Positions 21,971 through 39,479 of a stretch of 64,000 nucleotides of DNA are shown in pieces; the first letter of the stretch is position 1, and every line of letters begins with the position of its first letter. The notes under the pieces are model-generated. The model saw only the letters and a program-made list of their open reading frames with translations, did not search any database and was not told the DNA's origin. The position numbers were made by a program, and so were the translations under genes. Source of the stretch: a virus (Duplodnaviria; Caudoviricetes); the IMG/VR virus record IMGVR_UViG_2894682665_000004, positions 309-64,308 of that record. One strand, written 5' to 3'.

Positions 21971-22423
21971 TTAACTAAAATACAGATTGGCCTCCCGCTC
22001 CCGACGAGCTACCAGTACCGGTAGTTTGACTTTCTCGCCGTTTCTGGTACCGAACACCCACCGGTTAAACTGCTTCCGGATATCAGGATCACGAGGGTTT
22101 TTATTAATCACCTTCAGCAGCGTCGAGCCTCTGAATGCCCCCTCGCCGGCGTTAAAGGCAAAACTGACGCAGGCGTCAAACATCTGCTGCGTGAGCGGCT
22201 GAGTAACACACTTATTGACGCAGGCCTCGAAGCGGTCGAGATCCGAATCGAGCAGCCGCAGCGCTTCGGCCGAGGTGATGGTTTTGCCCATGAACACGTC
22301 GGGGCCCGTATGACCGATGCCAATGGTGGGCACACCCACCTGGTCGCGGTAGGCTTTGAGTTTGCAGCCTTCCTCATTCTTAATGAAGTCGATGCCGCGC
22401 ACGGAAATTTTGTAGCTATTCAT
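21971..22423 (-). CDS. Endolysin, GH24 lysozyme
   Basis: IKNEEGCKLKAYRDQVGVPTIGIGHT (E..D..T triad), SFAFNAG, LVARREREANLY. Confidence 0.95.
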   Translation of the reverse strand: MNSYKISVRGIDFIKNEEGCKLKAYRDQVGVPTIGIGHTGPDVFMGKTITSAEALRLLDSDLDRFEACVNKCVTQPLTQQMFDACVSFAFNAGEGAFRGSTLLKVINKNPRDPDIRKQFNRWVFGTRNGEKVKLPVLVARREREANLYFS

Positions 22424-22569
22424 ACAAGTTACGCTAGTTTACGGTAGAACTTTTATGTGATTGTGTGCGTGTCTGTGTGCATTACCGGCTAGGCCAACTA
22501 GCTCATAAACAGCGCGCTCTTACTTGCCTGGGATCGTGACGGTTATGTGACTGTGCGGCTTGTGGGCGG

Positions 22570-23001
22570 TTAAAACTTTTCCAGTACTGACTTGATCCAC
22601 CGCTTGCGGCCCCAGCCCAACAGGCGCGTACGCAGCAGCTCACTCTCCAGTTCCGATCGCAGTTCTTTGATCTGCCCGTTCGATTCGACGAGCGCCTGGC
22701 CAACCTGGCGCTCCCGGCCGCTGGCGGTCGTCAGCTTGGCGTTGGCCTGATCCTGCAAGGCCTTGATGCGGGCGTCTTTCTCCTGGATCAGATCGCGGCC
22801 GGCCAGCCTAGTCTGTTGCAATAGACTCACCGACTCGTTGTATTTGCTGGTCATCTGCTCCAGCTGCTGTTTGTAGGTAATGGCCTGCGTGCAGCAGTCG
22901 GGTATGGGTACAGGTTGCCCCTGGGCGACGAGGGCCGACCAGACCAGCAGGGCCAGCACGGCCGTCAGCCCCGCGATGATTTTTTCGGTTTGGTTTTTCA
23001 T
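22570..23001 (-). CDS. Signal/TM-anchored coiled-coil protein, spanin-like
   Basis: Start MKNQTEK at 23001; N-terminal hydrophobic stretch, CC pair, long coiled coil; directly upstream of endolysin. Confidence 0.6.
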   Translation of the reverse strand: MKNQTEKIIAGLTAVLALLVWSALVAQGQPVPIPDCCTQAITYKQQLEQMTSKYNESVSLLQQTRLAGRDLIQEKDARIKALQDQANAKLTTASGRERQVGQALVESNGQIKELRSELESELLRTRLLGWGRKRWIKSVLEKF

Positions 23002-23228
23002 GGGTTGATCTGGTTTAGGGAGTCCCACCGGGCTTTGGCGGATTGTTCGCTCGGCCGGGGGGCGGTAAACACCGAGTCGGGCCGGGTTTCGCCCAGCACG
23101 TAGACGGTCTTTTTCTGCCGGTACTGTTGGTAGAAGCCCCGGCCGATCAGGCCCAGGGCCGTCAGGGTGAAGGCGAGCAGCAGCAGCTTCAGCCCGTTCT
23201 TTTTGAGGTATGACTTTACTTGATCCAT
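22998..23228 (-). CDS. Small single-TM lysis-cassette protein
   Basis: LKLLLLAFTLTALGLIG TM; coupled to both neighbours. Confidence 0.6.
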   Translation of the reverse strand: MDQVKSYLKKNGLKLLLLAFTLTALGLIGRGFYQQYRQKKTVYVLGETRPDSVFTAPRPSEQSAKARWDSLNQINP

Positions 23229-23677
23229 TTGTCAAAGGTTTGTTCCATCCGCACTTTCATGCCCGCCAGCGTCTCCTTGATATCCTGCGCCATCTCCTTG
23301 GTTTCGGTTACCTCTTCGCCCAGCTTGGCCACCTTTTCCGACAGCTGGCGGGCGTGGTTCTCGGTTTGCAGCTCCAGCTTGGTGGTGCGCTCGGCGATGT
23401 GCTCGCGCCAGGTCTGCCACTCGCGCAGGTTGGCCTGGTAGGTGGTCTTGTGCTCAGCCAGGTTATCGGCAATCGCCTTCAGCTTGGCTTCTTCGTATTG
23501 TTCGGCCTTTTCGGCGGGTCGGGTAAACAGGGAGCGAAACAAGTAGCCGGCCAGGGCCGACACCAAGGCCGCAATGCCGGTTTGCACCAGGGCGGCCGCG
23601 CCCCCGCCCGAATCGGACGCAATGGCGATGTTGGCCGGCTTGTCGACGTGTTGCAGCAGCAGAAAAAAAAGTGTCAT
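23216..23677 (-). CDS. TM + coiled-coil protein, holin-like position
   Basis: ALVQTGIAALVSALAGYLF TM then coiled coil. Confidence 0.6.
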   Translation of the reverse strand: MTLFFLLLQHVDKPANIAIASDSGGGAAALVQTGIAALVSALAGYLFRSLFTRPAEKAEQYEEAKLKAIADNLAEHKTTYQANLREWQTWREHIAERTTKLELQTENHARQLSEKVAKLGEEVTETKEMAQDIKETLAGMKVRMEQTFDKWIK

Positions 23678-24141: not shown

Positions 24142-24573
24142 CTAGTCGATGTAGGCGATCCAGCAGATATTGAGATTGGTCAGCACGGATATACCGTTGA
24201 TCTTGATATAAATATTGGTGCTGTCTGCCGTCCAGCTGGTGCCAAGCGACAAGGGCGTATTATACTGAAACGAGTACTGGACATTGACGGGCGTTGCGCT
24301 TAGCCCGTGCGGAATCGTGAAGCTCTGCGTACCGATCGCCAGCGTCAGCACGGTAAACACCCCTCTGGCCTGAGTGAGCGGCTCGGACTTTACCCACCGG
24401 CCCACCGGCCAGCTGCCGATCACTTTCTTGCCGTCGTCAGTCCCTGTCGACAAATCATCCCAGAAAAACAGGCCACCCATTTTATCATTCATGACAACCC
24501 CATACCGGACGATGGCAAAGCTGGAGGAGGTTCCTTTTTGCGCCCGGAGCGCGGTTAAGTTTTCAAAGCGCAT
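24142..24573 (-). CDS. Tail fibre/spike-associated protein
   Basis: GGLFFWDDLSTGTDDGKKVI...GRW tailspike head motif; C-terminal FTIPHGLSATP domain. Confidence 0.7.
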   Translation of the reverse strand: MRFENLTALRAQKGTSSSFAIVRYGVVMNDKMGGLFFWDDLSTGTDDGKKVIGSWPVGRWVKSEPLTQARGVFTVLTLAIGTQSFTIPHGLSATPVNVQYSFQYNTPLSLGTSWTADSTNIYIKINGISVLTNLNICWIAYID

Positions 24574-25007
24574 CAGCGTAGCTCGATTGAATAGATGAGG
24601 TTATTACTGCCCGGTACCGGTGCGGTCGTGTAGTAGATCGTTACGTTGGTAGCGTCCACAGTATAGTAGCGGATATTGGCCGCGTCGTTGCTGTTGGGAT
24701 GGACGGCCACAAAGCTTGGCGTAAAACCCAGGCTGTGGGCGACGGTAAAGGTGGTTTGATTGCCCGTACCGGACAGCGACGCACTCAGCGGATAGGTACC
24801 AAACGGTTTACCATTGACGGTTACATTGTTGCCCGTGATCGACAGGCCCGGTATGCCCAGGTTCGCTTTGGCCGTGGCCACGTTTCCCAGATCGGACAGG
24901 TTGGCGCTTTTGGCCATGCCCCCGATTTGATCGAGCGTCGGCATCGGACCGGGGGTGATTTGGGCGAAACTGGCAGTAGAGACTAGCAGAAACAAAATCG
25001 CTTTCAT
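24573..25007 (-). CDS. Signal-peptide protein with tail-fibre repeat
   Basis: MKAILFLLVSTASFAQ; AKSANLSDLGNVATAKANLGI fibre motif; C-terminal FTVAHSLGFTP domain. Confidence 0.75.
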   Translation of the reverse strand: MKAILFLLVSTASFAQITPGPMPTLDQIGGMAKSANLSDLGNVATAKANLGIPGLSITGNNVTVNGKPFGTYPLSASLSGTGNQTTFTVAHSLGFTPSFVAVHPNSNDAANIRYYTVDATNVTIYYTTAPVPGSNNLIYSIELR

Positions 25008-25014
25008 GGTCTCG

Positions 25015-27027
25015 CTAGTTTGGTGTAACCGCCAGCCCTACTACGCCTGTCGCTTGGCTGGTTGCAGAGGTGATAACAAACTCATAGATCTGGCCAGCAC
25101 CCACAGTGCTTGGATTGCCAGTAGTCAGCGTGGCACTTCCCTGATTTGCCGGTATAGTGATTGTCCCTATCAGCGTGTTAGTGGGGTAGGTCTTGTTGTA
25201 TACATCGACCGTTACGGATTGTGCGATTGGCTCTGTAAGGAAAATGCTTAGTGTTGCTCCGTCCGCCATTGTTAAAGGGCAGTGGACAAATCCACGATTG
25301 TTCTGCGCATGTGGTATAACTGATCGTAACGTGAACACAGCTTCATAGGCGCGGGGCGAGGGCTTATCGTCGGCAAAGAATAAAGCAGCTGGCTTGCCTA
25401 CGTAGCTGCTGTAATCGGTACTACCCATCCCCGTAGTGCGAACATAGCGAGCGCTAGTCGTACTGCTGCGCGTGGGGTTTCCGGTGCTTAGGCTCACTAT
25501 GGCGGAGGTTGTGCCACCGACCGCGAGTTGACCCGCCTTGAACCCGCCTAGGTACTTGGTCGATAGTCGGGGTGAGTCGCTACTGAACACAAAGTCGATA
25601 TAGCCCACTCCACCCCCGGCGATGGTGCCTACGTAGTACTCTTTGCTATTTTTTACTTGCGTATCGACATAACTATCATTTGCAATGAAGCTAAACGTAT
25701 TGTCCTGATAGATTTCGATTGTGTTGCCGCCCGTAGCCTGCATTGCCCCCGTGGGACTCACGCCTGTCAGCCGGGTATTTGCTCCCGACACACTTGCTGC
25801 ATAGTTAGAAAAATACTGCGCTGCTTTCGAATTAATGACAACATAAATCGCCTTTTGTCCCGTTGCGGCAGTGAACGCTGTTAGGCTCATTCCCAAATCC
25901 ACATAATTGCTGCCAATGCCAACCAGTTTGAGGTCTGCTACCTTTTTGTAGCGAACATCGCCCCGGAAATAGCCAGGGTAATAATCCCACACATTGCCAC
26001 CCAGGTTAGTTACTTTGAGTTCAGCATCGTACTTTTTTGCCTGGTTAATCAGCGTAGACGGTGGGACCAGAAATTCAGCAAAGGCACTCGCTCTGGCACT
26101 GTATCCCGCGCCGGACGGGTGAACCAGATCGCCCAGCAAGGGAAGTTGTGTACCTGCCGTTAATGTTGTGGTGGACTGGCCAAATACCCTATCCCAGGTA
26201 TCGAATAGGCGAACCCCAGAAAAGTCGTTACGTACAGCGAGATACCCATTCCGTAGGCCCTGATTCCATTTTTCGACAAGTGCCTGATCCGTTGGTAAAT
26301 CCTGCCCAAAGTTGGGATACGCTGTTGAACTTGGAAATCCCTGCCCAGCCGTGAAGGGTCGCGCCGTCATCGGGTTAGGCGTGCGCAAGATGATCTTGTC
26401 TTTTGGATAGGCTTTCTGAATGCGCGTGATGGCGGTACGTAGGCGTTGTGCGATGTAATCGCTTATCTGGGCCTGCGTCAGGTTACCCGTAGCGGCATAC
26501 AGAATTAGGTCGTTGATGCCGTAACAAACCACCCAGCATACCTTATCGGCTTTACCAGCCCGCCAGTTGAGTTGCGTAGCGAGTGAGGTGGCCCCGCTTG
26601 GTTTGTGCCCGTAGTAATCCCACTGATTGATACCCGCATTCGTGGTCACAATGGTAGGGGGCGTAGCTGCGGCCCCGGTTAGCCAGTCGTCCAGGCGGTG
26701 TCCGGAAGCCCCAAAACTGACCGTCCCGACGACACGCTCCAAAACTTCGCCCGGCTTGCGCAGTTCGGTAAGCCGATCGAATCCGTACCCCGAACCCTGG
26801 TCCTGCTCGGTGGTGGAGTCGCCACTAAAAAGAAACAGCACATTGTCGGGCGAGAAATCACCCAGCCCGCCCACCGAAACGATATTCAACGCATCCGCCA
26901 CCATGACCGATTCGCTGCCCGTGCCCGTTGGTGTGTACGAGGTAGTACCACTACCGCCACTGGGTTTATACACCTGCGCCTGCACCAATCCTGCGCAGAG
27001 CAGTAAAAAAACGAGTATCTTCTTCAT
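25015..27027 (-). CDS. SGNH/GDSL hydrolase (putative polysaccharide deacetylase) with signal peptide
   Basis: MKKILVFLLLCAGLVQAQ; FSGDSTT, YGINDL, DLVHP catalytic blocks. Confidence 0.85.
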   Translation of the reverse strand: MKKILVFLLLCAGLVQAQVYKPSGGSGTTSYTPTGTGSESVMVADALNIVSVGGLGDFSPDNVLFLFSGDSTTEQDQGSGYGFDRLTELRKPGEVLERVVGTVSFGASGHRLDDWLTGAAATPPTIVTTNAGINQWDYYGHKPSGATSLATQLNWRAGKADKVCWVVCYGINDLILYAATGNLTQAQISDYIAQRLRTAITRIQKAYPKDKIILRTPNPMTARPFTAGQGFPSSTAYPNFGQDLPTDQALVEKWNQGLRNGYLAVRNDFSGVRLFDTWDRVFGQSTTTLTAGTQLPLLGDLVHPSGAGYSARASAFAEFLVPPSTLINQAKKYDAELKVTNLGGNVWDYYPGYFRGDVRYKKVADLKLVGIGSNYVDLGMSLTAFTAATGQKAIYVVINSKAAQYFSNYAASVSGANTRLTGVSPTGAMQATGGNTIEIYQDNTFSFIANDSYVDTQVKNSKEYYVGTIAGGGVGYIDFVFSSDSPRLSTKYLGGFKAGQLAVGGTTSAIVSLSTGNPTRSSTTSARYVRTTGMGSTDYSSYVGKPAALFFADDKPSPRAYEAVFTLRSVIPHAQNNRGFVHCPLTMADGATLSIFLTEPIAQSVTVDVYNKTYPTNTLIGTITIPANQGSATLTTGNPSTVGAGQIYEFVITSATSQATGVVGLAVTPN

Positions 27028-27033
27028 AGGTTG

Positions 27034-27594
27034 TTAGCGGGTTCCAATGATTAAAAATGTGTTGCCAGCGCCGGGATCATAGGTGATCGCTCCATGTTTG
27101 ATGCCTGGAATAGCAGGAAACGTAAAGCCCGTTTGAGCCGCCAAGGGTTGTCCCATCAGGGTTCCGCTGGTGGTGCCGTTGTTGAATACACTCACGAAGT
27201 AGGCTCCGGCTGCTATTGTACCGGCGGTCGTGGCCGGCGTGTTAAAATCAGTACCAGTTGTGGTTGTGATCGTGACGTTACCGCCCCCACCGCCGCCCGA
27301 CGCGGGAATAGCCGCTTCGTAGTTGGCCAGCGCGGTCGCCACCGTGGTGCCCCAGGCGCTGCCATCCGCCTTTTGAAAGTTGGCCACCTCGTAGGGAAAC
27401 GAGTAGCCGCCGACGCGCACGTTGATGCTGCTGCCGGCTGCGGTCACGGCGATATCGCCCGGGGCGAACGTGCCACTGATAGAGGTGCCCCGCACGCCGA
27501 CCTGATCGCCGACGCGGTAGAGTTTGATAATGTTCTGCCCGAAGCCGATGCTGGCCAGCAGGCACAAGAGGGGAATTAACAGGAGTCGTTTCAT
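27034..27594 (-). CDS. Signal-peptide Gly/Thr-rich beta protein
   Basis: MKRLLLIPLLCLLASIGFGQ; GGGGG linker. Confidence 0.75.
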   Translation of the reverse strand: MKRLLLIPLLCLLASIGFGQNIIKLYRVGDQVGVRGTSISGTFAPGDIAVTAAGSSINVRVGGYSFPYEVANFQKADGSAWGTTVATALANYEAAIPASGGGGGGNVTITTTTGTDFNTPATTAGTIAAGAYFVSVFNNGTTSGTLMGQPLAAQTGFTFPAIPGIKHGAITYDPGAGNTFLIIGTR

Positions 27595-27618
27595 GGTATA
27601 CAGGGGGATTAATTAAGA

Positions 27619-29787
27619 CTATTGATCGGATCGGATGCGGTAAATTTTCCACTTTACGCCACCGATGGACGGGTATTGACCATCGCCATTCGGGTCTTTG
27701 TATTGGATCGAAAAGCCGAGCATGTGGGAGCCATCCCAACCTGAAACGTTTGTCATGTCAACCGTGTAGGTCTGACGGCCAGCGTTCGGATTGATACTAA
27801 AGTCTCGGCTACGCTCTACGCTAGGGTTGTCCGGATTCGACCAGACGATTTTCATCTGAGAAGCCCCGTTTACGAACTCCGCATCGATGTAGATTTTCTT
27901 AACGAACTCGCCATTGATCCACTGCTCAGGGCTTGACGCTTTCATGTCTTTTCCCTGTTGATCGCCCTGAAGGAGCGGTACAACTTCCAGATAATCGGTG
28001 ATATTCTTCTCCAGCTGATCGCCCGCATGGTTGTAATACCAGCCCAGACGCGACCGCTGATTAAAGACATAATCGAACTTGCCCGTCCATCTTGGCTGCG
28101 CGTAACACCAGGCTTTAATCTCATCGACGGTTCCGTATTTGGCCGCAAAGTCCAGGTCGTAAATGGCGTCTTTATGATCGAGAATCAGGTGCGGAGCAGA
28201 ACCCACATAGAACAACGCGAAGTCTTTATCGATGCCGGTATCGGCCCCTTTGCGGTCATTATCGTGCGCCCAGCGCCCCGAAAAAGGCATATAGAGACCC
28301 CATCCTTTGCCTATCCGGTTATCGATTGCCGCCATGCAGGGCTCAGTCGATCGGAACTGAGTAGCCCCCCCGTCATCTTCCGGCTGATTTCGGGAAATCC
28401 AGTTGCCGGTGTAGGGTTTACCCGTTGCGTACATGACCGTCGTAAAGTCCGGAACAAGCATAAAGCAAGGCGTTTCCTGCGTCCTAACGTCGGGAAACGA
28501 ATTCGACCAGGCGTCGTCGCGGAACATCGTCCAGCGCATGTGCATTCGGAAAGCAGACGCGTCGTTTGGATCGTGCCTGAGCCACTTTTCCATGTACATC
28601 TTACCCAGAACCCGGCTCATGTCCCATTGATAGGGCTGCGCTTTGGTATAGAGCTTGCCCGTACTTTTGTGGAATGTCAGTAAGGGGGAAAAGTCTCCGT
28701 TTGAACCCTCGTTGCCACCTTCGATGGGATTCCATCCGATGCCGTGCGTCACCTGCCCCGCTTCTGTATACTCATCTCCGGCCCCTCGTGGCGTGGAGTA
28801 GGCTCCCATTTGGACCTGCCGGCCCGCATCTAAAATGCCATTACCCCAAATTGGACTATTAACCTGATTCTTGCCGTTGTACGCAGAGGAGACACTGAGG
28901 TAGTCCAGGAATCCGGCACCCGTCAAATTTAGTCCGATCCGAACACCGCCCGAAGTCGGTGGATCAAGATATACCCGGTTGTAAGCGCCGTTCGCTTCAC
29001 CTGAGCCGCTACGTCCCGTCTCTGACAAGGCGACATACGTACTATTTAGCTCGTAGGCATTACCGTACCCTGCCGTCGTTGTGGCCGTATTACTACCAGG
29101 GTTTGTCGTGGTCTGCGAGGGCGGCTGGGTAACGGTCGTGCTGGTAGCATTGAACAAGGCCACGTCTCTCGCTCCGGAAACAGGCGTAAACGTTTTACTG
29201 AACGTCACCTGATCGGACTCTTTGCGGATGGTTATTTTCTTGGCGGAACCGTTCGGCAAATTGACGATCCAGCGCCGGGTATTACTGGTGGGCTCCGATC
29301 CGAAATAGAACGTCGTGTTGTTGATCGGTACGCCGTCCGGATTATTGATAGTAAAGCTGCTGCCGTCTGCGTTTTCAAAGCGCATTTTGACGTTATCCCC
29401 CGAATTCAGCGAAACCGTGGCGTTTACCGTCAGCGAGTTCGGACTGAACGAATACGTCGCCGACGCAAAGGCCGGGCCGGTAGCGGTCGTCGAGCACGTC
29501 GGCTCGACAATGGGCGCTTTGCCCGACGGGAGCGGACACCCGCCCGATTTGGTGACGCGGGCAATGGTGCCATTGGCCACGGCCGCTTTGAACTCGTTGT
29601 TCTTGCTAACGGTATACGGATACGTCGTCAGGTTGCGCTGGGCAATGACCCGGTACAACTCGACACTGGGCGCGTTGGGTTTGTAGATATAAAACTCGAC
29701 GGGTACGACCGTTTGCGCGAGTCCACGCGGGGCTAAACCCGACAGCGTCAGGCACAATACGGACAGAAGTGTAAGAAGCTTTTTCAT
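27619..29787 (-). CDS. Signal-peptide multidomain protein, probable carbohydrate-interacting
   Basis: MKKLLTLLSVLCLTLSGLAPRGLAQ; Thr/Pro linker, Trp-rich central beta domain (DAGRQVQ...GWNPIEGG), CBM-like C-terminus. Confidence 0.75.
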   Translation of the reverse strand: MKKLLTLLSVLCLTLSGLAPRGLAQTVVPVEFYIYKPNAPSVELYRVIAQRNLTTYPYTVSKNNEFKAAVANGTIARVTKSGGCPLPSGKAPIVEPTCSTTATGPAFASATYSFSPNSLTVNATVSLNSGDNVKMRFENADGSSFTINNPDGVPINNTTFYFGSEPTSNTRRWIVNLPNGSAKKITIRKESDQVTFSKTFTPVSGARDVALFNATSTTVTQPPSQTTTNPGSNTATTTAGYGNAYELNSTYVALSETGRSGSGEANGAYNRVYLDPPTSGGVRIGLNLTGAGFLDYLSVSSAYNGKNQVNSPIWGNGILDAGRQVQMGAYSTPRGAGDEYTEAGQVTHGIGWNPIEGGNEGSNGDFSPLLTFHKSTGKLYTKAQPYQWDMSRVLGKMYMEKWLRHDPNDASAFRMHMRWTMFRDDAWSNSFPDVRTQETPCFMLVPDFTTVMYATGKPYTGNWISRNQPEDDGGATQFRSTEPCMAAIDNRIGKGWGLYMPFSGRWAHDNDRKGADTGIDKDFALFYVGSAPHLILDHKDAIYDLDFAAKYGTVDEIKAWCYAQPRWTGKFDYVFNQRSRLGWYYNHAGDQLEKNITDYLEVVPLLQGDQQGKDMKASSPEQWINGEFVKKIYIDAEFVNGASQMKIVWSNPDNPSVERSRDFSINPNAGRQTYTVDMTNVSGWDGSHMLGFSIQYKDPNGDGQYPSIGGVKWKIYRIRSDQ

Positions 29788-29790
29788 GGT

Positions 29791-31680
29791 TTAATTCGAA
29801 ATAGCGGTGGGTATAGTTTCTGAGTTGGCGGCCGTAAACCGGTAGTCACCCGTCCAGGTGATGGTCGGCGAGGGGGTGATCAGTGGACTGGAGTAGCGAA
29901 AGCGCAGGTGCTGGGGCAGTATCGTTGTACCAGTCGGAACATTGGGAATTTGCCAGGCATCCACGTACGTCTTGCGGCCCGTAATGAAAAAATGCGTCGA
30001 GCCCGATTTCCAGCTTCCCGTATCGACCCACACGTCAACGCGGACCTGATCAGCGGGGTCGAGCATCGGCCAGGCGGCTACAATCTCGACGTTATTGCCG
30101 GTCTCCGAAATGCGGCCCCGGATGCAGGCTTCTTTCCACTTGTCGAAGTCCACGTCAATGCCCCGGTGCGGGCGCACCCAGTACCAGTTGCCCCAGTTGC
30201 GACCTTCAAACTGGCTAAACCGATGCAGGCCCTTGACGATGTATTCAAACTGGCCCAGATTGGTCTTATAGCCGCCCTGATTGACCGTTACCCCCGGAAA
30301 CTGAATCGCTCCGTTATCGAACGTAGTGGGGCTACGCTGTAAATATTCCCCATGCCAGAGGAATTCGCTGTCGTGCAGCAGGGCGCGAAAGATGGTGCCA
30401 CTCTCCAGCGCATCGCCGTCGACCGGGCGTGCATCGGTCTGCCCTGGTGCATTGGCTTCTTCGGTATTGGTCCGGTACCAGTCGCCCAGCATGACCCCCG
30501 TAAAGTCGGAACTCCGGTCATTTTTCCGCAGCGCGTAGGTTCGGTTGTTCATCCAGAACCGATTGGCCTCCTCGCCAGCTACATCTTCGTAGAGCCAGCT
30601 GGTATGATAATCGTACTCGTTCTGATTGAAGTAGTTAGGGTCGTTGCCATAGACGGTGAAGGTTTTACCGAAGGCAGTTGTCGTTGAATTGTCCGTCCGA
30701 AGAACCCGGCGACCATTGGCCAGCACGTACGACCCGTCCCCGTTTTTCTGGTAGATCGTCTGCATGCCACCGATCGTCGTCCGGTAGTAATGATCGCCAG
30801 CGGCAACGCCCCCCCCGTTCGCCCGCAGTGCAACGGCCATCGGGCTGTTCACATCCAGGGGAGCCGAGGTGTTCCCCGTGCCCCACCAAAAGTTGATGGC
30901 GTACTGAGGGTGTTCCGTGAACAGGTAGCCATCGATCGACTTTCCCTTATCGGCGTAGCCCTTGAAGCTGGGCGAGGTAACGGGTTTGGGCCCGTAGGTA
31001 AACACCTTGCTGGTGGTACAGACCTGCAAAATGCCCTGGTAGAGATAGCCGACAAACTTTTTCAGGGAGCCTTCTTTTTCCGGGTGATCCCAGTAGTGGG
31101 CGCTTTCCTCATCAATCGTCACCCATTTGGGGATTTTACCCCCGCAAATGCCATTCTTGATCAGATCGCCCATCCAGGTGCCCATCAGCCTGGCCGCATC
31201 CGGATCCGTAACCGGAATCAGCGAGTTGATGTAGGGAGCAATTTGGGCTTTGCGGGGATCACTGTCGGGCAAGGCGTTGTAGGGGCCAGTCAGGTACGAG
31301 GGCATATTGCCCGGCGAACCCGGCATGAGGATATACCCCATCATTTTATCCCCCGAATTGTTGAGAATATCCTGATAGTTTACCGCATCATTACCCGTAC
31401 CGGAGTAGTTCAGGTTTGGGATTAACTGCCGAAAGCCGTGCGTAAAAAAGTCGTCATCCCACTCCCCGATATCACCCGACCGTTTTTTAAAGCGTGGCCC
31501 CCAATAGATCCAGTCTTTTTGAATCGAAAAACGGGGAAACCGTTTCCAGTTCAAGGCCGCTTTCGCCTGCTGGGGCTGGTAGGTGTAATCGTTACCTTGT
31601 GGTCGTAGATAGTTACGGTAGGTCTGGCCGAAGGAAAGGCTACCCGACAGCAGGAGCCAGAGAATAAGGAGCTTTTTCAT
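29791..31680 (-). CDS. Signal-peptide protein, possible glycoside-hydrolase-like fold
   Basis: MKKLLILWLLLSGSLSFGQ; aromatic-rich, TIDEES motif; catalytic family not assigned. Confidence 0.7.
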   Translation of the reverse strand: MKKLLILWLLLSGSLSFGQTYRNYLRPQGNDYTYQPQQAKAALNWKRFPRFSIQKDWIYWGPRFKKRSGDIGEWDDDFFTHGFRQLIPNLNYSGTGNDAVNYQDILNNSGDKMMGYILMPGSPGNMPSYLTGPYNALPDSDPRKAQIAPYINSLIPVTDPDAARLMGTWMGDLIKNGICGGKIPKWVTIDEESAHYWDHPEKEGSLKKFVGYLYQGILQVCTTSKVFTYGPKPVTSPSFKGYADKGKSIDGYLFTEHPQYAINFWWGTGNTSAPLDVNSPMAVALRANGGGVAAGDHYYRTTIGGMQTIYQKNGDGSYVLANGRRVLRTDNSTTTAFGKTFTVYGNDPNYFNQNEYDYHTSWLYEDVAGEEANRFWMNNRTYALRKNDRSSDFTGVMLGDWYRTNTEEANAPGQTDARPVDGDALESGTIFRALLHDSEFLWHGEYLQRSPTTFDNGAIQFPGVTVNQGGYKTNLGQFEYIVKGLHRFSQFEGRNWGNWYWVRPHRGIDVDFDKWKEACIRGRISETGNNVEIVAAWPMLDPADQVRVDVWVDTGSWKSGSTHFFITGRKTYVDAWQIPNVPTGTTILPQHLRFRYSSPLITPSPTITWTGDYRFTAANSETIPTAISN

Positions 31681-31681
31681 G

Positions 31682-32101
31682 TTAATTGGTCGGATCGGTT
31701 AGTATGTTCGCGTCGGAGTAGGTGACGGGCGTGCCTGAGTCATCGGTGTCGTTGGGGTTTCCTGCGGTCCAGGCCGTGCCATCGGTGGGCAATGGATCGG
31801 GGTCAGGATCGGGCGTCGTGCCCCCGTCGACGGGGGGCTGGGTGACGTATTCGGCCAGCGTGTCGTTACTGGCGATCGCGCAGACCAAAACCTCTTCCTG
31901 CTTGCCCGCGGGAGGGCCTGTGCGATCAATCAGGGCCGCGATGTTTTGAGCCGAGCTGGTCCACAGCGTTGGCACGTCCGCGCAGACCGATGCGAGAGCA
32001 ACGGGTATCATTTTGTCGACCACCGTAACCGTTGGCGGATTCGTGGAGCTGTCGGTTGTGGTCTCGACGACAAGCAAAAAGCAATCGGTTATTGTTGCCA
32101 T
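31682..32101 (-). CDS. Acidic Thr/Pro-rich tail-associated protein
   Basis: 139 aa, DPDPDP linker; in tail operon. Confidence 0.65.
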   Translation of the reverse strand: MATITDCFLLVVETTTDSSTNPPTVTVVDKMIPVALASVCADVPTLWTSSAQNIAALIDRTGPPAGKQEEVLVCAIASNDTLAEYVTQPPVDGGTTPDPDPDPLPTDGTAWTAGNPNDTDDSGTPVTYSDANILTDPTN

Positions 32102-32104
32102 GGT

Positions 32105-34792
32105 CTACAGCGGGTAGAGTTGAACGGTTGTGTGATCGGGCGTACTGGCCTGCGGCAGGTAGTGGGGCTGCACCTCGGAATTCGCCACCGTTTGCAGCTT
32201 GACGGCGAAAATGTTCAGCGCCCGGGTGGTGTTGGAAAAGTCCTCATCGGCGAAGAAAGTCACGTGCGTATAGCCCGGCGGCAGCGTGCCCCAGCTGGTC
32301 TGGGCGTTGTAATCCAGTTTCTGCATTACCCCGTAGGTGGCATCATTTCTGGATTGTAGGTAGCGCGACCGCACGTCTGCGTTAGCCGCATTAGTACCCT
32401 CAATCCTGACCAGAATAACCAGGTTTTCCGACACCGTGCCGGAAGACGGTAAGATCGAATGCCAGCCGGTTGGGTGAAACACCGTTACCTTGGCGATGCT
32501 CAGGGGCGTGGTTTGATTGGCCACATTCTTGAAAACGATGGCCTTCTCAATGACCGCCCCGTTGCCGAAGGTGAAGAAGATTTTACCCGGCACATCGGCG
32601 GTGATCGAATTGATTGGGGTATGGATTTTAGTACGCGAATCGGCCAGGGCAATCAAATCAACGCCCGGTGGGTAGGGCTCAAAGAGGCCATACGCCCCTT
32701 GCGAATCGATGTAGTTCTGCCGGCTGCCGTTGGTGTATACTGCGTCAATTGAATACTCTGGATCACTGCCCCCTTCGACGGCTTCAGTCGGACCAACGAT
32801 TTCATATTTATCAAAAACAGCCGTGTCCGCTACGTTGATCAAATCGATCAGCTTCTCGACGTAGCCACCACCGGCCGGGAAGGTGAAACGAAGCGTACGG
32901 GTCAGGTTGGCAGTAATTGAACCCATTGGCAGGGTTACCGTGCCGATCGCATTCATGCCCGTAGTGGCCGTCATACCATCCGGATACGGCGTATTGATCG
33001 AGTAGGCACCCGATTCCGTGTACTGCTCTTCGAGTGGCGCCTGATTGAAGAGCGCCACTACTTTAAAGTGAGCCTGGGGCCCTCCTTCAATAATGGCCTG
33101 CGACGTTTCAATGCGATCGATGCGGTAACCCGTGATGTACCTTGTAATTGATGCGTCATAGATCTGAATGACTTTGCTGGCATTCAGGCCCAGATAAGCC
33201 GCCGTAAGCGTCGGGCTGCGGGTATCGTTTGGCGTTGAGTTAACGGCGGCAAATAGCACCCCGTCGGCACCCCACGTCAGGGAGAAATCACCACCCGTAG
33301 TTTTATTTGATGCAGCCGTTACATCCTCCGTATCACCGTTGGTGTAGGTCAGCCACACTTTTTGGTTGGTCTGTGCGCCTTCGTTCTGACCCAATGGACC
33401 CAGTATTTCCAGCTTTTTAGGCAGACGGGTAGGTGGTGTACCGCCGTCTGGAGTCTTACTGGGCGCCATGATCCGGATGGAATTCAGCCGGACGTAGTTA
33501 CAAGCCCCGCCGGCATTACTGTTCTTGCTGGTGACCAGTCGAACGTAGCGCAGGGATCGGTAATTGGCATCAAGATCCGTCTCAACGGGCAAAACGATTT
33601 CCTGGGTGGTACGCGCTTGGTTGGTAACTGTTGCCAGCACAAACCAGGTAATCCCATCCGTGGAGCCGCTGAGCTGATAATCTACTGGTAGCCAATCGGC
33701 ACCATCTGAAAAATTGTTCGGCACTAGCCGAATCTGCTGGGGGGCAGCCGTTCCGCCCAGATCGACGCGAATGGTAACGGGCTCGGTTTCCCCTACGCAA
33801 GGGGTGGTATAAGCCGAATCCGGATCATCGTCGGTCAAATGCTCGGCGACCCAGATCGGCCCAAAGCCCGAATCAGGCGCGGTTACGGTCGCATCGACTG
33901 CTACATCAATCAGATTACTCAGACTCACGCAGGCGAAATCCGACGTTCTGGGTGAATACCGGAAGGCAGTTGTGCCGGACAGGGGGCGAATCTCGACGGT
34001 AATAGGCTCCCCGTTTTTGAACACATCGGGAATAGTAAACGTCCAGCCGCAGATGTGCGTAGTCGCGCCGGATAGCCCTAGTACGTCAGCCACTTCGGGC
34101 CGGGCGAACGTAGCCGTGGCAATACCCGCAAAAATGCCGTTGATGAAGACCCGCAGCTTGGCGGGCGTATTGAGATTATTAAGATCATACACCCAGCCGC
34201 CACACTGAGAACAGTTAACGAAATCCAGTGAGGCATCATAGAGGGGGGCCAGGATGCTGACCGGCGACCATTGGATAATGTTGGTTGCCGTATATGTTTT
34301 GGTAACCGTACCCGATAGGTTGCAGGTTGCCGCGATAGCACAGAACAGTTGCTTCAGGCTTGGATTAGCGCTTATGGTAGTAAGCACCGTTTGCCCTAAC
34401 AACAGCAGCGTTTCGGGTGCCAGGCTTCGCAAAAAGGCGCGATACACAGCATCCCGGTCCAGATCGTTCGACCGGGCAACCAGGGAGGTCAGCGAGGATG
34501 AGCCGGTCGAATTCTCTTCACTCGGATCGACAATATCGTAGCCACCCGTCTCCTTGAAGACCACCCGAATCAGCTCCTCGTCCGCCATGTGAACCGGATG
34601 GTAGCCCAGAAACCGGTAAACGATTCCCGCCACGAACGGGTCATTGTTGTAATCCTTATCGAAGTATGGATCCTCAACCTGCTCCCGTTTATCGTCCAGG
34701 TGGCCAGCCTCATTGGACAACACCGAAAAGGTGAAGCCCTTGGTACCATAGCCACCCGTCGTCAGGGTGATTTCAGAAACGGGATTGCTCAT
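32105..34792 (-). CDS. Tail tip/fibre protein with F5/8-type C (CBM32-like) and Ig-like repeats
   Basis: VTIRVDLGG...YQLSGSTDGITW...RYVRLV discoidin motif; three (L/Y)EI(L/V)GP..EG-type repeats. Confidence 0.75.
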   Translation of the reverse strand: MSNPVSEITLTTGGYGTKGFTFSVLSNEAGHLDDKREQVEDPYFDKDYNNDPFVAGIVYRFLGYHPVHMADEELIRVVFKETGGYDIVDPSEENSTGSSSLTSLVARSNDLDRDAVYRAFLRSLAPETLLLLGQTVLTTISANPSLKQLFCAIAATCNLSGTVTKTYTATNIIQWSPVSILAPLYDASLDFVNCSQCGGWVYDLNNLNTPAKLRVFINGIFAGIATATFARPEVADVLGLSGATTHICGWTFTIPDVFKNGEPITVEIRPLSGTTAFRYSPRTSDFACVSLSNLIDVAVDATVTAPDSGFGPIWVAEHLTDDDPDSAYTTPCVGETEPVTIRVDLGGTAAPQQIRLVPNNFSDGADWLPVDYQLSGSTDGITWFVLATVTNQARTTQEIVLPVETDLDANYRSLRYVRLVTSKNSNAGGACNYVRLNSIRIMAPSKTPDGGTPPTRLPKKLEILGPLGQNEGAQTNQKVWLTYTNGDTEDVTAASNKTTGGDFSLTWGADGVLFAAVNSTPNDTRSPTLTAAYLGLNASKVIQIYDASITRYITGYRIDRIETSQAIIEGGPQAHFKVVALFNQAPLEEQYTESGAYSINTPYPDGMTATTGMNAIGTVTLPMGSITANLTRTLRFTFPAGGGYVEKLIDLINVADTAVFDKYEIVGPTEAVEGGSDPEYSIDAVYTNGSRQNYIDSQGAYGLFEPYPPGVDLIALADSRTKIHTPINSITADVPGKIFFTFGNGAVIEKAIVFKNVANQTTPLSIAKVTVFHPTGWHSILPSSGTVSENLVILVRIEGTNAANADVRSRYLQSRNDATYGVMQKLDYNAQTSWGTLPPGYTHVTFFADEDFSNTTRALNIFAVKLQTVANSEVQPHYLPQASTPDHTTVQLYPL

Positions 34793-37434
34793 TGCGTAAA
34801 GAAGGTTACCTGACGGCGCAGGGTGGATTTAAGCTCGCCGATCGTAATGCCGTCTTGGCGCACGATGGCACCGAGCTTGGCCTTACCTGGTTCAATGGGC
34901 ACAAAGCCGCTCACGCTGGCCGTTGCGCCGAGTTTGGGAACAATACCGACACTGGTCAGATCCTGTAAAAATTTATCGTGGCGACTGGTTGTAACGGGCA
35001 AACTGGGCGGCACGGGCTGATCGGCCTCGTCGGGGTTCAGCGGGATCAGATTGCCGTCCTTCTCCACCCAGAAGCCTTTCGGCGAGGGCAGCTTTTCAAC
35101 GTCTTCGTGCATGATACGTACGCTGCTCGTTTCGTAGCGGCAGCCCTGCACGTCCCATTCGAACCGCGAGGCAATTTGTTGATCGTAGGGCTGAAACGTG
35201 GTTTCCTTGATCGTGCTGGCATCGGCAATGGTCACCTGCGAGACTTTCTGACTGATGACCGTGCGGTCTACCAGAAAATACCACGGATTGCGCACAAAAG
35301 CGGGAATTGAGGTAACTGTATAATCCCCAAAATTCAGTCCGTCGCTAGTGACTCGGATGGTCATGCCCACCTTGATCCAGGGTAGATACACCCCAGGGTA
35401 AACGGCATTGACAATCTCTTTTTTGAATTCGACAAGCAGATTCGTCGCCTGCGTGGCGGGCTCCTCAGAAGGGATACCGCCAATATCCAGGTAACGCAAA
35501 ATGGTATGCATACCCAGCGGCAATCTTCCTAGCAGCGTGGCCTCGACCACATCAGCCGGCTGCATATACTGGCGGGCCATGGATGCGGCCAAATGATACG
35601 GCAAGCCCTGACCAACGGCACTAGCCCCCGTTTTGTCGGCCCGATCCCAGCTGACGGTTGGCTCGTGGGTACCCAGGCGAAACAAAGGTCCCGTGCGGTC
35701 ATACGGCAGGGGGAAATACACATCACCCAGCGTCAGGCTGGCGGTCGTCTCTAGTTTGCGCTTTGAGCTAGTAATGGTGACCTGCGTACTATCGATGCTG
35801 ACGCCATCCTGCTTGGTTTCCAGCGTGATGCCGTACTGCTTCAGGTACGGGCGGTTGCTAGGCGTACCGGGATTCGCGCCCCCGCCGGGCTTGTCCAGCG
35901 CTTCACCCACGCAGACCCACACCTGAAGAAAGCGCACGTTGCCGATCGCTTCCATCTCCAGGGCAAACTCCGCCTGTCCGCTGTAGGTGATCGTGCCCGC
36001 ATCATTGCAATGGTAGGTCAGAATGCCGACTAGCTCCGATGTTTTGGGGCTCTCCTTCCAGGCTCCCCCCTTTTGCAAAATGTGCATTTGCAGCGGGCCG
36101 TTGCTCTGTTGTGTGTAGGCAAACACAACGATTTTGGACGCCCTGAGCAGGTTTAGCTCGAACTTACCCCGCAGCACCCGTTTGTAGGCTTGCTGATACT
36201 GGGGTGAATCTTTGGCAAACTCGACTTGGTAGCGAATGGAGGGTGTGTCGGGTTTGGCTTTCTCGTCGCCGTACCCGTACAAAACCATTGCGTATTGATC
36301 CTCTTCCGTGCCAACTCCGACCCGAAAAGAGTCAGCGGCACTGATGTTGTTACGCGTCCAGCCCGTCGCCAGGCCCGTATTGTCGACCTGCCCCCAGTCC
36401 CCGCTTTTTAGCCAGTTCAGGTAGCGCCCAAAGTCCTGTTCGACCGTCACGCCCGGTTTGATGCCCAGTAGCCGAACGGTGGGTTTTTCGTTTAAAACCT
36501 GCACCGGTTTTCCGGGATAGATATCAACCCCAAAGTCAACACTGCGCTCCGAGAGCCCATCGGGGGGAGCCGACAGATCCGGGCTTGAATAGTTGCGCAG
36601 GTGAACCGTCTTTTTAGAGCCCTGATTCCAGACGTCCCAGCCCCCACCCGCTTCATCGGCCCGCAGCACCAGCCAGCCGCCCCCTGCTCCGCCCAGCTGA
36701 CCGATCCGGCAGCCGTAGGGCTCGAGTACTTTTTTTAGCGCATCGTAGCAGCTGAGCGTATCGTTCTTTTCGTTGACGAGGGCTTCAGCCACGATCTGCG
36801 TCGTGAAGAGCGGATCAATGGCCGGGTCAACTTTGCCGTTCACGATACTCAGCGAACGCAGCGTCGCCTGCTCGTAGATGTTTACCCCGGTGACGAGCGG
36901 CAGATCGAAACCGGTGTTGAGAAGCGCGGTGCGAATAACCGTCGACAAGCTAACGTATCCCTGTAAACGTTTACCGTCTCGATCTACGATCGGGCGGTCG
37001 CGCAGCGTTGAGAGACCGCAGGCCGCACTCACCTCGATCGGGTAGGGCTTCTTTTTATAAGTTTCCGAGTAGTCGGCCGGCATGATCCAGCCCGCAAACT
37101 CGACGCGGGCATAGTTACCCGTGTTGGATGGGTCGCTCAGCAGCACGGCCTGTACCTCCCGGTCCGAGCGGACGTAGAATTCCCGGCTCTGGTAGAATGA
37201 CTCCGCGCGGAGCTTGAAGTCCGCCTTCAGGGGATGCCAGAAAGCAAACCGGCTCTGATCGGACGAGGACTTACTGATCTTGACCGGCGTGCCTTTGTAA
37301 AGTGAAAGCTCTTTGGGCGTACCGGTAAAATCTCTGAATCGAAATTCGACGCGGTACTGCACCGGCGCGATGCCCAGCCCCTTATTGGGCAGGTCAACGA
37401 AATCAGCGTAGTATTTAACCGCGTAGGTAGACAT
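34789..37434 (-). CDS. Minor tail protein (distal tail/baseplate hub)
   Basis: 881 aa, first tail gene after tape measure; IEVSAACGLSTLRD pattern; role by position. Confidence 0.75.
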   Translation of the reverse strand: MSTYAVKYYADFVDLPNKGLGIAPVQYRVEFRFRDFTGTPKELSLYKGTPVKISKSSSDQSRFAFWHPLKADFKLRAESFYQSREFYVRSDREVQAVLLSDPSNTGNYARVEFAGWIMPADYSETYKKKPYPIEVSAACGLSTLRDRPIVDRDGKRLQGYVSLSTVIRTALLNTGFDLPLVTGVNIYEQATLRSLSIVNGKVDPAIDPLFTTQIVAEALVNEKNDTLSCYDALKKVLEPYGCRIGQLGGAGGGWLVLRADEAGGGWDVWNQGSKKTVHLRNYSSPDLSAPPDGLSERSVDFGVDIYPGKPVQVLNEKPTVRLLGIKPGVTVEQDFGRYLNWLKSGDWGQVDNTGLATGWTRNNISAADSFRVGVGTEEDQYAMVLYGYGDEKAKPDTPSIRYQVEFAKDSPQYQQAYKRVLRGKFELNLLRASKIVVFAYTQQSNGPLQMHILQKGGAWKESPKTSELVGILTYHCNDAGTITYSGQAEFALEMEAIGNVRFLQVWVCVGEALDKPGGGANPGTPSNRPYLKQYGITLETKQDGVSIDSTQVTITSSKRKLETTASLTLGDVYFPLPYDRTGPLFRLGTHEPTVSWDRADKTGASAVGQGLPYHLAASMARQYMQPADVVEATLLGRLPLGMHTILRYLDIGGIPSEEPATQATNLLVEFKKEIVNAVYPGVYLPWIKVGMTIRVTSDGLNFGDYTVTSIPAFVRNPWYFLVDRTVISQKVSQVTIADASTIKETTFQPYDQQIASRFEWDVQGCRYETSSVRIMHEDVEKLPSPKGFWVEKDGNLIPLNPDEADQPVPPSLPVTTSRHDKFLQDLTSVGIVPKLGATASVSGFVPIEPGKAKLGAIVRQDGITIGELKSTLRRQVTFFTQ

Positions 37435-37545
37435 AAAAACGACGCCCCTGTGGGGGCCTTCGAAATTACGGCTACCCTTAAGGGGTGTCGCTTAACCAGC
37501 GTTAAGGCGCATTACTTAAACTTTTGAAGTTACGCAAGCTGGAAC

Positions 37546-37567
37546 AATTCGTGTATATACACGAATT
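37546..37567. promoter_or_regulatory. Perfect 22-bp palindrome, candidate operator
   Basis: aattcgtgtatatacacgaatt. Confidence 0.55.
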
Positions 37568-38046
37568 CCTTAAGTTGGAATTGTAAATAAATAATCGAAA
37601 AAAATCGTTAACGGAGGTAATCCGCTTTGTACTGATCAATCTTAGTTTGAAGGTTGTCGCACTTATCCTCAAATATTTGTTGAAGGAGCCGAATAGTTAC
37701 TTGACGTTGCCTTGCCCGTTTATTCGAGTTCATAGCCCGCCGGGAAGACTCTTTAGATTTCCTGTTTGAAGTCAATAAAAAGTGGGCGACTGATGAAGTT
37801 CCATTTTCGTCATGGGTTTCCATAGCGGTTCAGACTTTAGTGTGTCTGTTAGAAAACAACACGCCACATTGGGAAACGATTTATTTTTCACTGTTGGGTT
37901 GTGTCATACAGGCGAGTATTTCTCTCGATTCCCTCGCCTACTGCGTTGGCAATAAGTCAAAGAAAGTTGTAATCTATAACTAGGGACCAAATTATTTGTT
38001 ATGATCGCCTATTTACTATATTTGAACTTAGTTACAAAGGATTTCA

Positions 38047-38253
38047 ATGAATGATATTAAGCTATTAGTTGGCCAACAGATTCGGGAAGCGCGCAAAGTG
38101 AAAGGGCTGACTCAGAAGGAGCTGGGCGAGAAGCTGGGGGTGGGAGAACCTACAGTGAATGGTTATGAAAGCGGCAAGCAAAATCTTACAATTGAGACTC
38201 TTCAAAAGATCGCAAATGCGATAGAAGTAGAAGTTAATACTTTCTTCAAATAG
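38047..38253 (+). CDS. XRE-family HTH regulator
   Basis: GQQIREARKVKGLTQKELGEKLGV...YESGKQNLTIETL; TTTG 37995 and TATATTTG 38017 promoter. Confidence 0.92.
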   Translation: MNDIKLLVGQQIREARKVKGLTQKELGEKLGVGEPTVNGYESGKQNLTIETLQKIANAIEVEVNTFFK

Positions 38254-38416
38254 AATATATTTTTGACCTTAAACTTGCCATATATCAGAAGTTTTTGTAT
38301 TATTGTAATGTAAATGGGAATGAGTGTCACCCATTTACATAGATAAACCCCCAACGCAAACATCTTGGCGGACTTAGCGAAGGGGGCGATGTGTCACACA
38401 AAAACAGGTAGTAATC

Positions 38417-38836
38417 ATGAACACGCAGCAAAGCTACGCGGGTAGGGCGAATCACGCAACCCCGAATCCACCAACGGCCCAAAGTGGGGGCCCAACCTCG
38501 CCTATTACTGATAGTCGGCAACAAAGCACAGTCCCAGCATTGAGCGACGAATTGGTTACAATTCCCGAAGACCTGTATAATGCCTTCATTCAGTTCAAAT
38601 CAATTTCGGATGATTTTTTAGGTATCTCAGAGAGCCCCGTTTATGCCATTACCAGAATCTTAGAATCTTGGCTTGTCGATGCTCGACTATATAAGGATTC
38701 TACCGATATGAAATGTCTGCTGACGACTCTGCGCCTGCTCGATTTTTTGTATGATCTGCGCGTTGAGCGCGAATCGCTTGAATGGTTTCAGGACGAGGCA
38801 AGGAAAATGGCGAAGGGAGGGCAGAATAATGAATAG
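38417..38836 (+). CDS. Hypothetical protein
   Basis: 139 aa preceded by two hairpins (38308-38340, 38348-38386). Confidence 0.6.
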   Translation: MNTQQSYAGRANHATPNPPTAQSGGPTSPITDSRQQSTVPALSDELVTIPEDLYNAFIQFKSISDDFLGISESPVYAITRILESWLVDARLYKDSTDMKCLLTTLRLLDFLYDLRVERESLEWFQDEARKMAKGGQNNE

Positions 38837-39086
38837 CTTAGTAAGTGTTCGCTCGATTACCCACCAAGTTGTCACCCGCGTAGCCATTCTTTGGAATGAG
38901 CCCCGCTCGGAAGTGTACGCCCGAATCTATAACCGGCTTCACTGCTTCTACGGTATAGACCTGACCCAGTACCCGCGTAGTAAAGGGGAATCATTGCTTG
39001 CCGTTGCGGAACGACTCGATGTGATCGACAAGGTCTATCAATTAGCCGAAGCCGAAAGCCTGTATCTGCCACTCACCGAGAATTAG
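38829..39086 (+). CDS. Antirepressor C-terminal-like (ORF6C-type) protein
   Basis: VYARIYNRLHCFYGIDL...SLLAVAERLDVIDKVYQLA; start at 38829. Confidence 0.55.
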   Translation: MNSLVSVRSITHQVVTRVAILWNEPRSEVYARIYNRLHCFYGIDLTQYPRSKGESLLAVAERLDVIDKVYQLAEAESLYLPLTEN

Positions 39087-39089
39087 TCA

Positions 39090-39479
39090 ATGAGCAAGCA
39101 ACTTGTTCAGCACAAGGGTTTGTCTCGCACAGCCCTTGTGCGCTTGATTCGTCGGCTTGATCTGTACGAACAATGGAAACGGGCAGTGTTCATTCGTGAC
39201 CGCTTTACGTGCCAGCACTGCGGAGCCAGAAACGGGCGAAAACGCGTTATTGAGGCCGACCATATTATCAGTCTCACTCAATTGGTAAAAGACAACAACG
39301 TAGGCTCAATCGAAGGGGCTGCTGCGTGTCTAGCCTTGTGGGATATTGGCAACGGACGGACGCTGTGCCACACCTGCCATGAGCAGACAGAATCATATCC
39401 AATACAACTTAGAAAAAAGAAAACATCATATGCCAGCAAGAGTCGTAATTCCCGAAGAGGTGCTATCAAAAATTGTTGA
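39090..39479 (+). CDS. HNH endonuclease
   Basis: WKRAVFIRDRFTCQHC...EADHII...LWDIGNGRTLCHTCH. Confidence 0.9.
   Translation: MSKQLVQHKGLSRTALVRLIRRLDLYEQWKRAVFIRDRFTCQHCGARNGRKRVIEADHIISLTQLVKDNNVGSIEGAAACLALWDIGNGRTLCHTCHEQTESYPIQLRKKKTSYASKSRNSRRGAIKNC

Follow-up and report, generated by a model that had tools for sequence, protein, structure and literature searches.

Five consecutive genes with predicted Sec leaders between the tail-tip and lysis genes of a Spirosoma prophage

Phage depolymerases are usually viewed as carried on the virion or as just set free when the cell lyses. The known virion-borne depolymerases and SGNH-esterase tailspikes have no leader, are assembled on the particle in the cytoplasm and are usually trimers. 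Other phage proteins are exported, including the Sec-exported and signal-anchor-release endolysins (fOg44 Lys44, P1 Lyz) and the exclusion lipoproteins encoded beside receptor-binding genes (T5 Llp, Cor of phi80-like phages). In prophages of Porphyromonas gingivalis, genes with signal peptides that follow a Gln rule (Q-rule) were read as an adaptation to the host Sec pathway (Matrishin et al. 2023, PMC10367356). Here we describe five back-to-back minus-strand open reading frames (ORFs), at 24573-31680, that come after the tail-tip genes and before the lysis cassette of a siphovirus-like prophage and are predicted to encode exported proteins. The stretch analysed (hereafter the window) is 64,000 nucleotides long, corresponds to positions 309 to 64,308 of IMG/VR record IMGVR_UViG_2894682665_000004 and holds this Spirosoma prophage on its minus strand. 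The host genome is 7.17 Mb, and the closest proteins come from S. endbachense (80% identity) and S. fluminis (66%).

The five proteins, named by their length in amino acids, are SP629 (29791-31680), SP722 (27619-29787), SP186 (27034-27594), SP670 (25015-27027) and SP144 (24573-25007), all on the minus strand. Leaders were scored with a heuristic of this analysis that combines charge in the n-region, an uncharged h-core, small residues at -3 and -1 and Gln at +1. We use SP+Q for a signal-peptide-like leader with Gln after the predicted cleavage site. The original prediction had claimed Sec leaders ending before Gln on these five proteins, and all five pass the test. Each has one or two Lys/Arg in the n-region and an uncharged 9-residue core with a mean Kyte-Doolittle value of 2.6-3.4. 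In 5 of 5 a small -3/-1 site is followed by Gln, with the predicted cleavage at the slash: SFG/Q19 in SP629, GLA/Q25 in SP722, GFG/Q20 in SP186, VQA/Q18 in SP670 and SFA/Q16 in SP144. The neighbouring proteins p143, p139, p895 and p881 fail the same test, and no gene of the head/tail module (40.8-54 kb) passes. Within the window the only other passing genes are a spanin-like lysis gene and four elsewhere.

The test was calibrated on the host. Such n- and h-regions were found in 942 of 5237 host ORFs of at least 150 aa (18%), and in these ORFs [AGSC]Q occurred in the c-region in 59% as compared with 8.7% at an internal control position. This difference indicates that the host follows the Q-rule that has been described for signal peptidase I (SPase I) substrates of Bacteroidota (PMC5837995, PMC10653852) and that the original prediction had also mentioned. 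Approximately 10.6% of host ORFs pass the whole test, so five passing genes in a row are not a chance occurrence. The host also encodes a glutaminyl cyclase (PF05096, E 1.5e-84). No C-terminal sorting domain of the type IX secretion system (T9SS; Por_Secre_tail type) was found on the five proteins in Pfam (E<=0.1) or NCBIfam (E<=1), which agrees with the earlier reading by eye. None of the five has a lipobox; Cys occurs within h-regions only (with Leu at -1) and not at a predicted cleavage site. Together, these features make it highly probable that the five proteins are exported as Sec/SPase I substrates, and part of the phage host-surface toolkit very probably matures outside the cytoplasm.

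The hydrophobic N-termini could instead be uncleaved, mis-called starts or relics with no role in export, and homologues without a leader, described below, do exist. We consider this very improbable because the genes start 1-24 nt past the upstream stop with no room for another start, because 5 of 5 fit the host-specific +1 Gln rule, because the leaders of orthologues diverge in sequence and keep their features, and because the pattern recurs across loci.

We also counted the Bacteroidota O-glycosylation sequon D-[ST]-[AILMTV]. It occurs once in the 2351 residues of the five exported proteins, whereas about 7 would be expected, whether estimated by shuffling or from the rate in the host secretome, 0.30 per 100 aa (Poisson P ~0.007). 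Leaderless phage proteins carry it at the expected rate of 0.30. The same trend, although weaker, is seen in related loci (L031-L047), where the ratio of observed to expected is 0.69 for SP+Q proteins and 0.95 for others. This scarcity is possibly an avoidance of periplasmic glycosylation.

For comparison, 20 related prophage loci were gathered via p881. By our count, SP+Q proteins account for 27 of the 85 ORFs of at least 250 aa in the interval from tail tip to lysis genes, and 15 of the 20 loci have at least one. The share of 27/85 compares with the genome-wide host rate of 10.6%. Orthologues of SP629 at 80, 78 and 66% identity have leaders that have diverged in sequence with the leader features and the [AG]/Q site kept. 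In the S. endbachense prophage the order is p881, a p895-like protein, a p139-like protein, the SP629 orthologue and an SP722-like protein, and three proteins have kept leaders, among them the counterparts of SP629 and SP722. It had been proposed to check whether orthologues keep the signal or start at a downstream Met. Close orthologues keep the leader, whereas more distant homologues at the same locus are without one, which the original prediction had not anticipated. Leaderless proteins of 715 aa match residues 19-627 of SP629 with their residues 117-714 (hhalign 99.7%, E 5e-26), and this alignment begins exactly at the predicted mature end of SP629. Similarly, SP722 aligns end to end, with 31.5% identity over 33-695, to the leaderless protein P0008 (688 aa), upstream of which there are only 15 open codons. 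A third enzyme family at the same locus also alternates between forms with and without a leader. Judged from these alignments, enzyme domains of one and the same type have exchanged a leader for an N-terminal extension without a leader, or the reverse.

Three of the five proteins (SP629, SP722 and SP670) resemble glycan-active enzymes and are likely to have a glycan-directed function. SP629 has a TIM-barrel glycoside-hydrolase-like domain followed by a C-terminal beta-sandwich in its AlphaFold2 (AF2) model (pLDDT 81, pTM 0.86). All of the good structural matches are glycosidases (GH27, GH140, GH51 and GH53, Z 9.5-10.4) with no family standing out, and Foldseek matches were to PslG, GH39 and GH44. 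The SP629 profile gave GH42 as its one match in PDB, and this match was weak (E 0.014). Pfam was uninformative for the relatives of SP629, which form a rare family with 18 representatives among 1.84 billion proteins. With fold scores that are middling, the model suggests a TIM-barrel glycosidase-like protein. One relative, P0018, has 1580 aa; its residues 1-621, leader included, are 55% identical to SP629 and are followed by a 960-residue extension with no Pfam match. In S. fluminis, an intact 66%-identical homologue with a leader (locus L049, 10001-11863) lies beside Rad52, GIY-YIG, NikA-like and ordinary host genes, and no tail genes are nearby. It may be a domesticated remnant.

SP722 consists of an N-module and beta-sandwich (residues 26-215) after the leader, a beta-supersandwich (about 247-567) and a C-terminal jelly-roll (AF2 model, pLDDT 78.5). 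The core matched the GH174 structures 8jd7_A (Z 23.5, root-mean-square deviation 3.8, 286 residues aligned) and 9k1g_A (Z 22.0, deviation 3.5, 276 aligned). As a comparison, generic mutarotase-like folds gave a background of Z ~16. Judged from the model, the core has a GH174-like endoglycanase fold. The beta-supersandwich is shared with the GH174 endo-alpha-1,3-fucanases (8jd7, 9k1g), in which D119, E120 and E218 are critical residues (PMC11943901). However, identity to these enzymes is only 8-11% and the substrate of SP722 need not be fucan. Neither the SP722 sequence nor its profile (E<=1) matched anything in PDB, and a fold search of BFVD gave low-TM matches except for chlorovirus proteins that have the same sandwich. 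A search of the genome contigs with SP722 found no relative, and tblastn with SP722, SP670 and p881 against 50,697 phage records found no match.

Residues 280-700 of SP722 share ~30% identity with a family of host proteins, present in several copies, that are secreted or are lipoproteins. This family has no Pfam assignment and has matches in 49 of 201 Spirosomaceae genomes. The host genome has four paralogues of the SP722 core, most with SPase I or lipoprotein leaders. The paralogues in this genome (G000) are at C1:1621582-1623150, C4:2654-4084, C1:619955-621388 and C1:2450963-2455243, and members of the family are ~480-530 aa. Look-alike clusters are seen in Planctomycetota and Verrucomicrobiota. 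The fold comparison suggests that the host GH174-like family may be an unrecognised glycanase family. The source of the exported phage enzymes appears to be the glycan enzymes that the host itself secretes.

SP670 has an SGNH/GDSL esterase domain (residues 69-310) and a beta-rich C-terminal half. It matches PF13472 (E 1.1e-10, 42.8 bits against a cut-off of 32.9), and PF00657 is likewise above its cut-off. Catalytic blocks I, III and V are all there (GDS at 69, GIND at 170 and DLVH at 300), and by these motifs SP670 is predicted to be an intact SGNH esterase.

The other two proteins are small. SP186 has an N-module (KLYRVGDQ...), a Gly-rich linker and a short C-terminal part. Its N-module is common to six other SP+Q proteins of 181-629 aa from two other genomes. 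The SP722 N-module is likewise common to other leader-bearing prophage proteins. These conserved N-modules come directly after the leader and the C-termini are variable, so that by sequence the modules look like anchors. A common origin of the SP722 and SP186 modules was considered and rejected since the leaders alone align. SP144 has a fibre-like motif and a small C-terminal domain after the leader. Its PHROG matches are weak (phrog_2282, tail fibre, E 0.003; another, E 0.0003), and SP629, SP722, SP186 and SP670 have no PHROG tail-fibre similarity. The claim of a classic fibre repeat in SP144 is therefore weaker than it had seemed and comes down to the match at E 0.003. A C-terminal domain common to SP144 and p143 had also been claimed. 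Direct comparison gives a pairwise BLASTP E of just 0.016, whereas relatives of both proteins carry the domain. This domain recurs in small proteins encoded directly upstream of tailspike-head genes, and SP144-type proteins carry a leader in L055, a membrane anchor in L054 and neither of the two in L057. The partner p143 (24142-24573, minus strand) is leaderless and has a tailspike-head-type N-terminus and the small C-domain; it is a conserved partner gene of SP144-like proteins.

The gene order of the prophage is tail module, plus-strand insert, p881, p895, p139, the five leader genes, p143, holin-like, spanin-like and lysozyme genes. Head and tail genes have strong PHROG or Pfam matches: large terminase (51970-53724), portal, protease, major capsid protein, head-tail adaptor, major tail protein and tape measure protein (40824-43589). 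Two leaderless tail-tip proteins, p895 (with an F5/8 type C domain) and p881, are encoded at 32105-37434 and the small leaderless p139 at 31682-32101, all on the minus strand; p139 ends 1 nt before the SP629 start. The intergenic gaps from p139 through SP144 are 1, 3, 24, 6 and 7 nt, and there is a 1-nt overlap with p143. Thus, the earlier claim of five ORFs tightly packed between tail tip and lysis cassette holds, with all five present at their claimed starts and 1-24 nt apart. The lysis cassette (21971-23677, minus strand) has a holin-like gene (23216-23677), a spanin-like SP+Q protein (22570-23001) and a phage lysozyme (21971-22423; PF00959, E 1e-41). No Bacteroidota-type promoter motif (TTTG...TAnnTTTG) was found on the minus strand at 21.5-38 kb. 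Sigma-70-like and terminator-like sites were no more frequent than chance in consensus scans, which internal promoters could escape. The GC content at third codon positions of the five genes is 0.57-0.70, like that of the head/tail genes and unlike that of the host paralogues and the AT-rich cargo region of the window. Gene layout and composition indicate that the five genes belong to a late block from tail to lysis and are likely to be co-expressed late. Among sequencing runs, one DNA run, probably the source, contained this stretch, and no RNA run was listed for it.

This organisation bears on the idea that the genes are lysogenic-conversion cargo (morons), that is, host-derived secreted enzymes made in the lysogen for superinfection exclusion or glycan foraging. 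The SP722 domain does have host paralogues, and an intact stand-alone SP629 homologue persists in a decayed element of S. fluminis. There is also precedent in the exclusion lipoproteins next to receptor-binding genes mentioned above, and the P. gingivalis prophage Q-rule genes have been interpreted in this way (PMC10367356). By contrast, the five genes are tightly packed with tail genes with no promoter-like site above chance, and their composition is that of structural genes and not of the AT-rich cargo region. Of the 20 related loci, 15 have this position filled, and the domains are swapped in the manner typical of receptor-binding modules. Cellulophaga phage phi10:1, which has the same type of cassette, was a free phage when isolated from seawater. 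Because of the operon structure and composition we regard the moron idea as unlikely.

Several features near the block were noted in passing. The plus-strand insert (37440-40820) interrupts the tail operon after the tape measure gene and before p881, and includes a LAGLIDADG-type protein with helix-turn-helix domains (39346-40605, plus strand). A 221-aa ORF at 22570-23235 is probably the 143-aa spanin-like protein started from an internal Met (22570-23001). This protein has an SP+Q leader and a Cys-Cys motif, and its homologues in other prophages begin at the same internal Met. Elsewhere in the window there is a 657-aa SP+Q protein (58854-60827) and a 497-aa lipoprotein-like protein (15583-17076), both without a Pfam match.

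The small protein p139 varies together with the enzyme encoded next to it, a pattern seen across three phages. In two phages the last ~35 residues of p139 accompany the SP629-type enzyme, and another tail stands in their place where a different enzyme lies downstream. L067 and L068 are sister prophages in one genome (IMG/VR 2911130114) with near-identical tail-tip genes and swapped exported-enzyme cassettes. Their p881 proteins are identical, as are the N-termini of p895 and residues 1-75 of the p139-like protein. The breakpoint is inside the p139-like gene at about residue 75, after which both the p139 tail and the downstream exported enzyme differ. In the window, the N-terminal part of p139 differs and the tail is the same as in the phage that shares SP629. 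From these sequences, p139 fits a candidate adaptor with a tail matched to the enzyme or, equally, what is left of the N-terminal part of a gene that was split. A relationship between p139 and the N-extension of the leaderless fused forms was considered and rejected as a demonstrated homology (hhalign probability 0.3%, Smith-Waterman shuffles z 0.7-3.8); a short motif at the junction alone is suggestive.

A cultured relative of this arrangement is phi10:1 (KC821618). Its gp088 is a distant member of the p881 tail-tip family. Next come gp091-gp095, which overlap by 4 nt at gp094/gp095 and are otherwise 2-7 nt apart, and after these a holin-like and an endolysin gene. All five of gp091-gp095 have SP+Q leaders. 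In GenBank, gp091-gp094 carry the note 'structural protein' with annotation from experimental tandem mass spectrometry (MS/MS) proteomics, whereas gp095, a pectate lyase, is without this note. Like the prophage of the window, phi10:1, a Bacteroidota siphophage held in culture, has a p881-family protein followed by five packed SP+Q genes and then by lysis genes. It differs in having a marine host from a different order, and the cassette proteins have no detectable sequence similarity to the five of the window, the tail-tip protein alone being related. Pfam was uninformative for gp091-gp095, and no discussion of their leaders was found in the GenBank record or the accessible literature. The annotation is the only experimental hint that exported proteins of this kind might travel with virions.

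We tentatively favour the idea that the five proteins, after maturation in the periplasm, encounter the virion when the cell lyses. The five genes would be transcribed together with the tail genes. The products would then be exported by Sec, cleaved before Gln, cyclised by the host glutaminyl cyclase and folded in the periplasm, as the sequence features, their conservation and the host machinery suggest. Three surface-polysaccharide enzymes (SP629, SP722 and SP670) and two small modular proteins would make up an exported module directed at the host surface. Once the envelope has been breached by holin, endolysin and spanin, these proteins, until then periplasmic, could come upon finished particles. 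Some might dock on the tail tip via the post-leader modules or via a leaderless adaptor such as p139, and serve there as virion depolymerase and recognition accessories. These last steps, from encounter to function on the particle, are the least certain. The earlier inference that glycan-degrading parts are routed via the periplasm is well founded, given leaders that are host-adapted and conserved, the late block, three enzyme-like proteins and no T9SS. Docking at lysis is favoured because the modules after the leader look like anchors and because forms with a leader interchange with N-extended forms that have none, and also on account of the co-variation of p139 and the phi10:1 annotation.

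Several points weigh against docking. Tailed-phage virions assemble in the cytoplasm, and we know of no demonstrated case of post-export docking onto virions. The SP629 and SP722 models resemble monomeric carbohydrate-active enzymes (CAZymes) and not trimeric fibres. The similarity of p139 to the N-extension is not significant, and its co-variation with the enzyme can be explained by block inheritance from a once single gene. The MS/MS label in phi10:1 could reflect secreted proteins that co-purified. Lastly, the S. fluminis homologue suggests that SP629 can work without a virion.

These points bear on whether the proteins mature in the periplasm and are never on the particle. They would then be soluble depolymerases and esterases that trim nascent or envelope-bound polysaccharide in the dying cell, or that clear extracellular polysaccharide and receptors once released, so that progeny escape and spread. 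Although this is itself a doubtful proposition, it is nearly as likely as docking at lysis because of the CAZyme-like monomeric folds, the host paralogues and the lone leader-bearing homologue in S. fluminis. The folds are apparently monomeric, the catalytic domain of SP722 has its family among secreted proteins and lipoproteins of the host, and distant relatives of SP629 are ordinary secreted proteins of other bacteria. The phi10:1 pectate lyase gp095 has a leader and is not flagged as structural, and frequent gain and loss of leaders suits a job after lysis for which the compartment of origin matters little. By contrast, mere release at lysis needs no leader, conserved post-leader N-modules with swapped C-termini look anchor-like, and SP144 and SP186 are not enzyme-like. 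The co-variation of the p139 tail with the enzyme and the annotation of four phi10:1 positional equivalents as found in virions also do not fit well with free enzymes.

Docking at lysis may be part of a wider pattern in tailed phages of Bacteroidota, whose host-recognition apparatus would be completed only beyond the cytoplasm. Enzymes and fibre-like parts would leave by Sec, acquire an N-terminal pyroglutamate and fold in the periplasm. They would snap onto particles built in the cytoplasm once lysis has mixed the two compartments, either by leaderless adaptors such as p139 or by the post-leader N-modules. Gain or loss of a leader would then be a routine switch between two ways of assembling the same enzyme. 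We offer this generalisation with more reserve than the reading of the five proteins themselves. With a conserved, host-adapted export of a set of tail-end enzymes and fibres, the morphogenesis or release of phages of a major bacterial phylum would involve an additional step. An export route would also explain why many 'fibre' genes of Bacteroidota phages look like host secreted proteins. This is relevant to the prediction of receptor-binding proteins and host range, where leader-bearing genes are usually discarded as non-structural. The locus offers a concrete example, open to test, of how genes of the host secretome become tail enzymes of a phage when a leader is exchanged for an anchor. It also yields two uncharacterised families of glycan enzymes, one GH174-like and multi-copy in Spirosomaceae and the other a rare TIM-barrel family.

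The locus shares some features with each of the known systems. As in known depolymerases and SGNH tailspikes, hydrolase or esterase domains are encoded at the end of the tail module and a conserved N-terminal part is joined to a swapped C-terminal part. However, the window has a cleavable leader in place of the N-terminal anchor. Like fOg44 Lys44 and P1 Lyz, the five are predicted late phage proteins routed through host Sec before lysis, but those endolysins are peptidoglycan hydrolases of the lysis cassette and not glycanases or fibre-like proteins of the tail locus. T5 Llp and Cor are also exported phage proteins encoded beside receptor-binding genes. These are small lipoproteins that block a protein receptor, whereas the five have no lipobox and the large ones are enzyme-like. 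The P. gingivalis prophage genes have SPase I leaders that expose Gln, as do the five. By contrast, they have no assigned function, with outer-membrane modification proposed, and no tie to a tail-fibre locus, glycan enzymes or leaderless homologues (PMC10367356). Apart from that short remark, we found no description in the literature of exported enzymes or fibres from a tail locus. What is new in this window is the identity of the enzymes, the three independent pairs of leader-bearing and leaderless forms, and the co-variation of the candidate adaptor.

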